From NCBI RefSeq assembly GCF_003334315.1, contig NZ_QOWR01000012.1: a DNA stretch of 64,000 nucleotides. One strand, given 5' to 3'. Position 1 is the stretch's first letter. Each line of letters starts with the position of its first letter. Positions 9,923 through 37,872 of this stretch are shown here, one piece after another. The notes beneath the pieces are model-generated. The model was not told where the DNA came from and made no database searches. It saw only the letters and a program-made list of their open reading frames with translations. The position numbers and the translations under genes are program-made. The stretch is from Escherichia coli. Its GTDB lineage: Bacteria > Pseudomonadota > Gammaproteobacteria > Enterobacterales > Enterobacteriaceae.

Positions 9923-11163
9923 CAGGGTTTTACCCCCGTGTTTTCAGTTTCTACCCGATCCTGCGTTTCCATTGTCGGTTGTGCGGGCGGATCAACCTGC
10001 GCCAGACGTGGCGTGTGTGCCGGAAGCCAGCCAACCAGCGCCGGGAAGTGGCGTAAAAAGTGGAACGCCAGCACGCTTTTGGTCAGGTTCCACCAGGTGC
10101 GTTTGGGCAGCATGGTTTCATCCACCTGCTGACAATCTGCGGCGATAATGCCGTTCAGATTATCGCGCAGCGTCTGGTTAAAATTACGATCGTGGATGAT
10201 GACATTTGCTTCGAGATTCAGTGACAAACTGAGCGGATCGAGATTACTGGACCCTACTGTCGCCCAGTGATCGTCCATCAATGCTACTTTGCCGTGGAGC
10301 GGGCGGCGGCGGTACTCAAACACCTGAACGCCGCCTTTAACCAGATAGTTATACAGCAAGCGCGCGCCGACTCTGACAATCGGCATATCCGGTTCGCCCT
10401 GAATGATCAGTTTGATCCGCACCCCGCGGCGTGCCGCTTTACGCAAGGCGTGTAAAAATCGATAGCCGGGGAAGAAGTAGGCGTTGGCGATAATGACTTC
10501 CCGCCGCGCCTGAGTGAGCATTTTCAGATAGTGGCGTTCTATATCATCGCGGTGTTCTTCGTTATCGCGCCAGACCAGCAATACCTGCGCTTCTCCCGGC
10601 TGGCGATTTTCTTCCGCTTTGTGATGACGTCGCCACCAGCGTCGTGCCGCGCTCTGTCCAGGCAGGTTTTCCAGCTCAAACTGGAGAATATCTTCGACAA
10701 TCGGCCCTTCAAGGCGTACCGCGTAATCCTGTTTAGCCTCTGGACCGTAGCTGGACATATGCTCGGCGGAGTAATTCAGCCCGCCAATAAAGGCGATACG
10801 CGCGTCGATCACCACAATTTTGCGATGCATCCGGCGAAACACATTGGTGCGCATACCAAAAAGGCGAGGGCGGGGATCGTAGTAGCGAAATACCACGCCA
10901 GCTGCCGTCAGTTCATTGACAAACTCATCGCTGAGATCCGGCGAACCGTAGCCATCCAGCAAGACTTCCGCTTTAACCCCGCGTTGCGCTGCTGCCAGTA
11001 GTGCCGCATGCAGCTGTTTGCCGACGTCATCCTCAAACCAGATAAACGTTTCAAGAATGATGCGTTCTTGTGCCTCGCCAATCGCCTTAAACACCGCGGG
11101 ATAATATTGCTCGCCGTTTTCCAGCAACTCGATCTTATTGCCTTCACGCCAGCTACATTTCAT
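9922..11163 (-). CDS. clsB: Cardiolipin synthase B (phospholipase D superfamily)
   Basis: 413 aa; two HxK(x)4D (HKD) motifs visible ([16 protein letters not shown]). Confidence 0.93.
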
Positions 11164-11921
11164 AAATGAATCTCCGCACTTAAAGGGGCATGATCAGAAA
11201 GGTGTCGCCATGTCTGCAGCGGCAACGCGGTTGGCGCGCTGGCGCTGGCATTTTTGACGTAGATCCTGTCCAGACGTAGTAGAGGAAATTGCACCGGAAA
11301 CGTGCGCGCCGGGCGTCCGTGGGCGCGGGTAAATATCTCATCCAGTCCGGCCTGCACTTTTAACGGATGATTAGCTTTTTGCCGCCAGTCATTGAAATCA
11401 CCCGCCACCAATACCGGTTCGCCGTCCGGTAGCTCATTCACCCATTCGGCGAGCATCGCAAGCTGCGCCTGACGGTGCGCCTCACGCAGGCCCAGATGTA
11501 CGCACATCACATGAATCGCTTTTCCGGTCATCGGCGGCACAATGCGGCAGTAGAGCACGCCGCGCTTTTCCGCACCATCGACCGAAACATCGCGATTCTC
11601 ATAATGTTCAATGGGATAACGCGACAGTACGGCGTTGCCGTGATGCCCTTCCGGGTATACGGCATTGCGACCGTAGGCAAAATCGCTCCACATGGTGTCG
11701 GCGAGAAACTCGTAGTGCGAGGTATCGGGCCAGTTTTCCACATGCAGCGGATGAACTTCGTGCGCGCCCATCACTTCCTGCAGGCAAACAATATCGGCGC
11801 TGACGGTACGCACGGCATCGCGAAGTTCCGGCAAAATGAAGCGTCGGTTAAACGCGGTAAAGCCTTTGTGAATGTTGATGGTGAGCACCTTGAACGAAAA
11901 TTGTTGTGTTTGATCGGGCAT
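11160..11921 (-). CDS. ybhP: Endonuclease/exonuclease/phosphatase family protein YbhP
   Basis: 253-aa ORF; 4-nt overlap with clsB. Confidence 0.88.
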
Positions 11922-12053
11922 AATTTTCCTGTCTTTGCCTCTTATCTCATTGAAATAGTGTAGTCGGCGTCACAAAAAGGTGCGGTCTTACGGAATTTTC
12001 CGTAAAGTTCGGTACTCTGAGTAAGTAGAGATAAATTCTTCAGGAGAGAAGCC

Positions 12054-12464
12054 ATGAAGTGGCAACAACGTGTTCGTGTCGCAACGGGTCTAAGTTGCTG
12101 GCAGATTATGTTGCATTTACTGGTAGTGGCGCTGCTGGTGGTGGGCTGGATGAGTAAGACTCTGGTTCACGTCGGCGTGGGATTATGCGCACTGTATTGT
12201 GTCACGGTAGTGATGATGCTGGTGTTTCAGCGCCACCCCGAGCAACGCTGGCGTGAGGTGGCAGACGTGCTGGAAGAGCTGACCACGACCTGGTATTTTG
12301 GCGCAGCGCTGATTGTGCTGTGGCTGTTGTCCCGCGTTCTGGAAAACAACTTTTTGCTGGCAATTGCAGGGCTGGCAATCCTTGCCGGCCCGGCGGTAGT
12401 GTCTTTGCTGGCGAAAGATAAGAAGTTACATCACCTTACGTCTAAACATCGCGTACGCCGCTGA
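12054..12464 (+). CDS. ybhQ: Inner-membrane protein YbhQ
   Basis: 136-aa hydrophobic ORF. Confidence 0.8.
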
Positions 12465-18080: not shown

Positions 18081-18102
18081 CTTAATCAAATGATTGATTA
18101 AG
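18081..18102. promoter_or_regulatory. Perfect 9-bp-arm palindrome, candidate CecR (TetR-type) operator
   Basis: CTTAATCAAatgaTTGATTAAG, 14 nt upstream of the cecR start codon. Confidence 0.5.
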
Positions 18103-35830: not shown

Positions 35831-36478
<648 letters not shown>

Positions 36479-36594: not shown

Positions 36595-36624
36595 TTCTGC
36601 ATGGTTATGCATAACCATGCAGAA
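36595..36624. terminator. Perfect 30-bp palindrome downstream of rhtA (putative terminator or binding site)
   Basis: ttctgcatggttatgcataaccatgcagaa, 13-bp arms, 9 nt past the rhtA stop. Confidence 0.5.
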
Positions 36625-36632
36625 ATGTAAAT

Positions 36633-37520
36633 TTAATTAATGTCTAATTCTTTTATTTTGCTCTCTTTGCGTACTGTCAGCGTAGACCCCATTGAAGCGG
36701 CGATAATCGCGCCGAGCGCCAGTAGCTGTATGGGTGTCAGTGTTTCTCCGAGGAAAATCATCCCGGAAACGGCAGCCAGCGCCGGTTCCATGCTCATCAG
36801 CGTACCAAATGTCCGTGTTGGCAAACGGGTGAGGGCAATCATTTCCAGCGAATAAGGCAGAGCGGTCGAGAGAATAGCGACAGCCAGACCCAATGGAATA
36901 ACCGACCAGTGCCAGAGTGCTTCACCAGCCTGAAGCGCTCCAATTGGCACGAAAATTAACGCTGCAATCAACGAACCAATTGCCACCGTCGCAGGGCCAT
37001 GTTCCGCTCCTGCGCGTTGCCCACTTAAAATGTAAATAGCCCAACAAGCCCCGGCCCCCAGTGCCAGCGCACAGCCGGTTAAATCGACATGGGAAACGTC
37101 TTGCCCCAGCGGTAGCAGGAACCACAGACCAAGAACCGCCAGCACAACCCAGACGAAATCTACCGGGCGACGAGAAGAGAACAGCGCCACCGCCAGTGGT
37201 CCGGTGAACTCCAGCGCCACCGCAATACCCAGCGGTACTGTCTGAATAGAAAGATAAAAAAGATAATTCATCCCACCCAGCGAAACGCCGTAAAACAACA
37301 GCGGTAACCGTTGCTCTTTGGCAAAGCGCAGTCGCCATGGCTTAAAGAACGCGATGAGGATCAGCGTTCCTAATGCCAGACGCAGCGCAGTGACACCCGG
37401 TGCGCCCACCAGAGGAAAAAGTGACTTAGCTAACGAGGCTCCACCCTGAATAGACGCCATGGCAACGAGCAATATGACTATTGGTAACCAGACCGGCATT
37501 TTACGTAATGAACCAGGCAT
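36633..37520 (-). CDS. rhtA: Threonine/homoserine exporter RhtA (DMT family)
   Basis: Start MPGSLRKMPVWLPIV (295 aa); 10 TM segments. Confidence 0.9.
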   Translation of the reverse strand: MPGSLRKMPVWLPIVILLVAMASIQGGASLAKSLFPLVGAPGVTALRLALGTLILIAFFKPWRLRFAKEQRLPLLFYGVSLGGMNYLFYLSIQTVPLGIAVALEFTGPLAVALFSSRRPVDFVWVVLAVLGLWFLLPLGQDVSHVDLTGCALALGAGACWAIYILSGQRAGAEHGPATVAIGSLIAALIFVPIGALQAGEALWHWSVIPLGLAVAILSTALPYSLEMIALTRLPTRTFGTLMSMEPALAAVSGMIFLGETLTPIQLLALGAIIAASMGSTLTVRKESKIKELDIN

Positions 37521-37872
37521 CCTTTCTCCCACAAATATCTAGACTTAAGTAAAGCGTGGAGTGTACTGGATATACCCAATGCTGGTTGAGCATTTGTTGA
37601 AAAAATTTTCCCCCGTTTTGACTAAAATGCGCCAGGATTGATGGAATCATTAGTCTGGTGATTAGGAATAATCTGGATGAATGACAGGGAAAACATGCGT
37701 AATACTTACGCAGTTCTCTGAAAAAGTGATTTAAATTTAGATGGATAGCGGTGTATGGAAACGTTCTGTTACATGAAATGGCCCGTTAGACATCACAAAT
37801 CGCGAAGAGTTTCCCATTAATTTTTGATATATTTAAAACTTAGGACTTATTTGAATCACATTTGAGGTGGTT

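Follow-up and report, generated by a model that had tools for sequence, protein, structure and literature searches.

The divergent spacer between ybhP and ybhQ of Escherichia coli contains an 18-bp palindrome, TTACGGAATTTTCCGTAA, and the question raised by this locus is what, if anything, reads the palindrome and which of the two flanking genes it serves. The window, meaning the whole 64-kb stretch of DNA that was analysed, corresponds at the palindrome to positions 824564-824581 of MG1655 (NC_000913.3). The first-pass annotation had described perfect 8-bp arms, a location between the divergently transcribed ybhN-clsB-ybhP cluster and ybhQ, and the absence of a T-run after the palindrome on either strand; all three were confirmed in the sequence, the gene names being checked on NC_000913.3. 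The spacer is 132 bp long, extending from the ybhP start (11921, minus strand) to the ybhQ ATG (12054, plus strand). YbhQ is an uncharacterised inner-membrane protein, and its gene is flanked by operons for a cardiolipin synthase and an ABC exporter. The gene converges with ybhR, the two coding regions sharing 39 bp (12426-12464), and the pair has been listed as a convergent 'excludon' (PMC12288877). The features of the locus are given in Table 1.

Table 1 Features of the ybhP/ybhQ divergent region, in window coordinates
Feature	Position	Strand	Remarks
ybhP CDS	11160..11921	-	First gene of ybhP-clsB-ybhN
Putative sigma-S-type -10 element for ybhP, C-TACACT	11957..11963	-	Read from the sequence; conserved with ybhP
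Block GTCACAAAAAG	11969..11979	.	Nearly invariant; upstream of the palindrome; kept in Kluyvera without ybhP
18-bp palindrome, TTACGGAA-TT-TTCCGTAA	11988..12005	.	Perfect 8-bp arms, 2-nt TT spacer
Predicted sigma-E -35 element for ybhQ, GGAATTTTC	11992..12000	+	Consensus GGAACTTTT
Predicted sigma-E -10 element for ybhQ, TCTGA	12016..12020	+	17-nt spacer from the -35 element
Putative sigma-E transcription start of ybhQ	12026..12027	+	5-6 nt after the -10 element (discriminator length, Rhodius 2006)
ybhQ CDS	12054..12464	+	Inner membrane protein, PF11076

The symmetry of the site is a poor guide to its function. A search of the window for any palindrome having 8-bp arms and 0 to 6 nt between them gave 25 hits, at about 16 sites, compared with about 8 hits per shuffle, and because palindromes of this size are so frequent the dyad alone is unremarkable; its significance comes from conservation and not from symmetry alone. 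The bases that flank the palindrome (c...a) do not extend the dyad. With as many as 3 mismatches allowed, the palindrome pattern is found at one place in the 64-kb window against an expectation of 0.21, with no second copy, and a repeat element was ruled out since the surrounding 61-nt region is single-copy in each E. coli genome. When the palindrome sequence was used as a search string, the only matches in the searchable literature were unrelated eukaryotic papers. Two of the other palindromes in the window may be noted. In the cecR-rhlE spacer, the perfect palindrome CTTAATCAAATGATTGATTAAG (18081-18102) is located 14 bp ahead of the cecR (ybiH) start; it probably serves the neighbouring TetR-family regulator CecR as its operator, and it is unrelated in sequence to the ybhQ palindrome. 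The second, GCATGGTTATGCATAACCATGC, is a 22-bp spacerless perfect palindrome at 36599-36620, near 849.18 kb of MG1655, between the minus-strand open reading frames 35831-36457 and 36633-37532.

Conservation was assessed by aligning YbhQ relatives, fetching the ybhQ locus from 80 Enterobacteriaceae species and comparing the upstream regions. Every one of the 18 palindrome positions is 80-100% conserved in the 80 species; for comparison, the majority base at four-fold degenerate ybhQ sites has a mean frequency of 0.58 in this set of species, and none of these sites reaches 0.9. The conserved blocks upstream of ybhQ are, in order, AATAGTGTAGTC, GTCACAAAAAG, the palindrome and GGTACTCTGA. The block containing the palindrome (11988-12006) starts with the first base of the palindrome itself, the two preceding positions (11986-11987) being variable, and conservation falls directly after TCTGA (12020) before climbing again at the Shine-Dalgarno sequence. 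The exact 18-mer is found in 39 of the 80 species, a perfect 7-2-7 dyad in 48 and the 12-bp core CGGAATTTTCCG in 67, whereas the pattern GGAAnTT-N17-TCT is kept in 74, so that the promoter pattern has been retained in many more species than the exact palindrome. Within both arms the inner 5 bp hardly vary. The outermost arm pair, formed by the first and last bases, is broken in 9 of 32 distinct sequences, no arm pair in these 32 shows a compensatory change, and column-shuffled alignments pair at least as well; there is no sign of the half-sites evolving together in this set. Among 5426 complete E. coli genomes the 61-nt region was recovered from 5424, of which 1298 show some difference within the 61-nt query, and the two variant genomes that were inspected carry a single nucleotide change, G to A at 12021, which lies outside the palindrome and just past the putative -10 element.

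On balance, the palindrome probably belongs to the ybhQ core promoter, which would be a conserved sigma-E promoter having its -35 region at the palindrome centre. The sigma-E promoter consensus has the -35 element GGAACTTTT, the -10 element (T/C)GGTCAAAA and a spacer of 15-19 nt, of which 16 nt is preferred (Rhodius 2006). At the centre of the palindrome, GGAATTT (11992-11998) matches GGAACTT at 6 of 7 positions, and the longer element GGAATTTTC matches the long form at 7 of 9. The one deviation within the heptamer is a T (11996) in place of a well-conserved consensus C, which is present at that position in none of the 80 species. The putative -10 element matches 4 of 9 positions of the long consensus, its context being TAC-TCTGA. 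Most species lack the GG/GTC that the long consensus has there; GTCTGA, which is nearer to the consensus, occurs in eight species. Across the 64-kb window, GGAAYTT-N15-17-TCNRA is matched at this site alone (11992-12020), in the orientation of ybhQ and 34 bp ahead of its ATG; of the 80 species loci, 53 show this strict pattern. The 17-nt spacing is kept unchanged in 74 of the 80 and falls within the allowed range, not at the preferred 16 nt. Judged from the sequence, GGAATTT and TCTGA would be the elements actually used, and transcription would start about 27 nt before the ATG; the Cappable-seq table had no ybhQ start-site coordinate for this region.

Other promoters were sought over the same bases. 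A minus-strand sigma-E promoter using the mirrored GGAAAAT was rejected, as no TC-type -10 element lies 15-18 nt downstream. No sigma-70 promoter overlapping the palindrome was found by consensus scan, and hand inspection gave hexamers with 2-4 of 6 matches. For FliA (sigma-28), TAAAGTTC at 12003-12010 matches 7 of 8 positions of the -35 element, but there is no GCCGATAA-like -10 element and the last bases are not conserved.

In the proposed arrangement, region 4 of sigma-E (RpoE) would read GGAATTT(TC) as the -35 element and TCTGA, 17 bp downstream, would serve as the -10 element. The left arm (TTAC) would supply the upstream context that rpoE P2, an autoregulated promoter, also has, and the right arm, TTCCGTAA, would lie in the -35-proximal, A-rich part of the spacer, so that the dyad symmetry would be mostly a by-product of a well-conserved sigma-E promoter. 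The ybhQ promoter would stand back-to-back with a sigma-S promoter of ybhP, and the two polymerase footprints would overlap over the palindrome.

Published expression and occupancy data agree with this reading. Overexpression of sigma-E raises ybhQ 5.0-fold, and ybhQ had also been reported by Kabir 2005 (PMC2731931). The ybhQ start designated ybhQp2 rises within 5 min of sigma-E induction, like bona fide sigma-E starts (PMC7075262); according to the same paper, EcoCyc gave ybhQp2 no sigma-E-dependent label. The gene is also outside the validated list of Rhodius 2006. In Salmonella, sigma-E ChIP-seq placed a 79-bp peak between ybhP and ybhQ in which MEME found the sigma-E consensus (PMC4577112), and the element in the S. 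enterica spacer is identical to that of E. coli.

Which of the divergent genes the element serves is indicated by loci of altered gene content, in which the presence of ybhP was judged by tblastn and inspection of open reading frames (L025, L028, L034, L046, L049 and L073; Kluyvera, Cedecea davisae and Yokenella). The ybhP-clsB-ybhN operon is absent from four Kluyvera species and C. davisae, where a gene of the Bax1-I family (ybhL/ybhM-type) lies directly upstream of ybhQ on the same strand. In these species the -10 block of ybhP is gone and the palindrome, GTCACAAAAAG and GTACTCTGA are retained, the Kluyvera form of the palindrome being TTACGGAATTTTCCGTAC/G. Because it is kept in genera that lack the ybhP operon, the element belongs to ybhQ. 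In Yokenella, ybhP alone has been lost, and clsB begins right after the shared spacer. More distant YbhQ homologues were obtained, with their encoding contigs, from a 50%-cluster search. The loci L093-95 (65% identity, no ybhP) have GTACGGAAATTTACGAAAAG...GGTACGCTGA, and L089 (44% identity) has TTAACGGGAATTAGTG; in both cases the left arm and the -35 element survive and the right arm is lost. Nothing comparable to the element was found at the YbhQ homologues of symbionts. Two loci (L096 and L097) are frameshifted and are probably low-quality assemblies of ordinary enteric (Salmonella-like) loci, which makes them uninformative.

On the ybhP side, the block C-TACACT lies about 29 nt upstream of the ybhP ATG and would place the palindrome centre near -46 of the ybhP promoter. 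It is lost or replaced in Kluyvera, which has no ybhP, and in E. albertii (L004, a short contig in which no ybhP hit was found) two of its bases are substituted. RpoS dependence of ybhPO has been measured as 251-fold (PMC2907692), in agreement with a sigma-S-type -10 element at this position. Between this block and the palindrome, GTCACAAAAAG is perhaps an UP-like A-tract, or else it may contribute the right half of a CRP-like site at 11959-11974. The arrangement TGTAG-N6-TCACA, together with GTCACAAAAAG (11959-11979), resembles a CRP site centred about -60 from the putative ybhQ start, and Kluyvera has at this position GTGAC-N6-GTCAC, a perfect dyad. ybhQ is among candidate Crp-activated genes (PMC8085971).

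The sigma-E promoter reading leaves some of the conservation over, as the conserved stretch, with its sharp left edge and the CCGTA in the spacer, exceeds the minimal requirement of a -35 element and counts against a purely sigma-E explanation. It is conceivable, if doubtful, that the dyad is additionally the operator of a dimeric helix-turn-helix regulator which gates the sigma-E -35 element and could influence the ybhP promoter as well. The perfect 8-bp arms, the coincidence of the conserved block with the left edge of the palindrome, and the near-invariance across genera of both CCGTA and the non-consensus T are what such a regulator would account for. A different dyad, GGAAAC-C-GTTTCC, also stands at the same place in a distant homologue (L082:1-67, a short metagenomic contig encoding a 50%-identical YbhQ), as far from the ATG as the palindrome is in E. 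coli. Against this, no protein candidate emerged, the searchable literature does not mention the sequence, and the window has no second copy. The outer arm pairs decay independently, none being changed on both sides, the distant lineages retain only the left arm and the -35 element, the left arm is accounted for by its identity with rpoE P2, and ybhQ mRNA changes only 1.3-fold under strong Rcs/Cpx activation (PMC5105897). To our knowledge, none of the sites of IclR/AllR, DeoR, LacI-family regulators, ArgR, TyrR, TrpR, MqsA, EvgA, UvrY or NarL fits the palindrome. The more specific proposal that the dyad is the operator of a dimeric protein, which might be RcsB or another NarL/FixJ-type regulator related to it, and which occludes the ybhQ -35 element while touching the region upstream of the ybhP-clsB-ybhN sigma-S promoter, is unlikely. 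If the dyad were such an operator, one 18-bp site would couple two envelope/stationary-phase stress regulons, at a pair of back-to-back promoters conserved across the Enterobacteriaceae.

An RcsB (NarL/FixJ-type) box that activates ybhP-clsB-ybhN during outer-membrane lipoprotein stress is very unlikely, although RcsB boxes in promoters lie near about -46 and the palindrome is centred at about that distance from the putative ybhP start. The box has been defined for the RcsB homodimer of Salmonella and E. coli as TN(G/A)GAN4TC(T/C)NA (PMC7913699), and the core GGA-N4-TCC fits the (G/A)GA-N4-TC(T/C) part of it, but the site reads ACGGA-ATTT-TCCGT, with an outer A and T where the box needs T and A. 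Treatment with a LolCDE inhibitor raises ybhP 17.6-33 fold, clsB 12-24 fold and ybhN 4.4-9 fold, alongside strong induction of the Rcs-regulated rcsA, wza-wca and yjbEFGH; the RpoS-only genes ybgS, ytjA, yciG and katE rise to a similar extent as ybhP in the same data (PMC5105897), which, together with the RpoS dependence of ybhPO, makes direct Rcs input unnecessary. The persistence of the element in genera without the ybhP operon also speaks against an RcsB box for that operon.

A CpxR site formed by the right arm and the bases downstream of it, repressing the sigma-E promoter, is highly improbable. The tandem consensus of CpxR is GTAAA-N5-GTAAA, of which GTAAA-GTTCG-GTACT (12002-12016) matches 8 of 10 positions, and the 5 nt that separate the pentamers are less well conserved than either of them. 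As a repeat, however, the second pentamer is weak, its GTAC could equally be -10 context (compare ACAC-TCTAA in rpoE P2), the left arm is left unexplained, and ybhQ responds only 1.3-fold under conditions in which cpxP is induced 12-20 fold (PMC5105897). A nucleic-acid hairpin acting as terminator, attenuator or cruciform has a negligible probability, for although RNA from the palindrome would fold (z about -2.2 to -2.5 in a 46-nt context, either strand), no T-run follows on either strand, the site lies between divergent genes and upstream of both putative starts, and the lack of covariation in the 32 distinct sequences argues against it.

The element is protein-binding promoter DNA and not a terminator, because it stays with ybhQ, because changes in its arms are uncompensated and because it has no T-run. 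The first-pass annotation had proposed that a protein-binding operator was more likely than a terminator, and that proposal stands in so far as it excluded a terminator and pointed to conserved protein-binding DNA in a divergent promoter region. Its operator part is less well supported. The best-supported binder is RNA polymerase with sigma-E, whose predicted -35 element GGAATTT is at the palindrome centre, and the reading of the palindrome as an unrecognised operator is probably wrong or incomplete.

The gain in knowledge from the sigma-E promoter reading is modest overall. A sigma-E promoter conserved throughout the family would place ybhQ firmly in the envelope-stress response, and the reading supplies the exact bases to mutate. 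It also provides a caution for palindrome scans, in that a conserved dyad can consist of a sigma-factor element and its context and need not be a repressor site. Should a regulator also use the dyad, the locus would illustrate how such a protein competes directly with an ECF sigma factor at a divergent promoter that they share.

Among known regulator sites, the palindrome resembles the RcsB box in its pseudo-palindromic form over 14 bp, its GGA-N4-TCC core and its placement upstream of a stress promoter, and differs from it in its outer bases and in that the element is linked to ybhQ and not to the Rcs-responsive ybhP operon. The NarL/NarP heptamer pair has the consensus TACYYMT-N2-AKRRGTA. 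The palindrome shares with it the 7-2-7 geometry and the outer TAC...GTA bases, but has GG in place of pyrimidines at positions 4-5 and A in place of T at position 7, giving 4 of 7 matches per heptamer, and the ybhQ site has no nitrate-related context.

The closest likenesses are to known sigma-E promoters (rpoE P2, degP, rpoH P3 and rybB), which were fetched from MG1655 for comparison, and the ybhQ promoter would be a new, not formally validated example of this well-known class. In rybB, TTCCG follows the -35 element one nucleotide out of register and was therefore not counted as evidence. The promoters of degP and rpoH P3 have the identical -10 pentamer TCTGA and the -35 elements GGAACTT or TGAACTT; they differ from the ybhQ site in having 16-nt spacers, no palindrome around the -35 element, and validated start sites. 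The rpoE P2 promoter, which in MG1655 reads GTTACGGAACTTTACAAAAACGAGACACTCTAA, shares TTACGGAA(C/T)TTT with the ybhQ site in register, 11 of 12 bases being common, so that the left arm and centre are TTACGGAATTT in ybhQ and TTACGGAACTT in rpoE P2 (also written TTACGGAACTTT). Both have AC right before TCT(A/G)A and an A-rich spacer after the -35 element. The two differ in that rpoE P2 has the consensus C in its -35 element, a 16-nt spacer that begins TACAAAAA, and no dyad, whereas the ybhQ site has T in the -35 element, a 17-nt spacer, and a right arm that mirrors the left.
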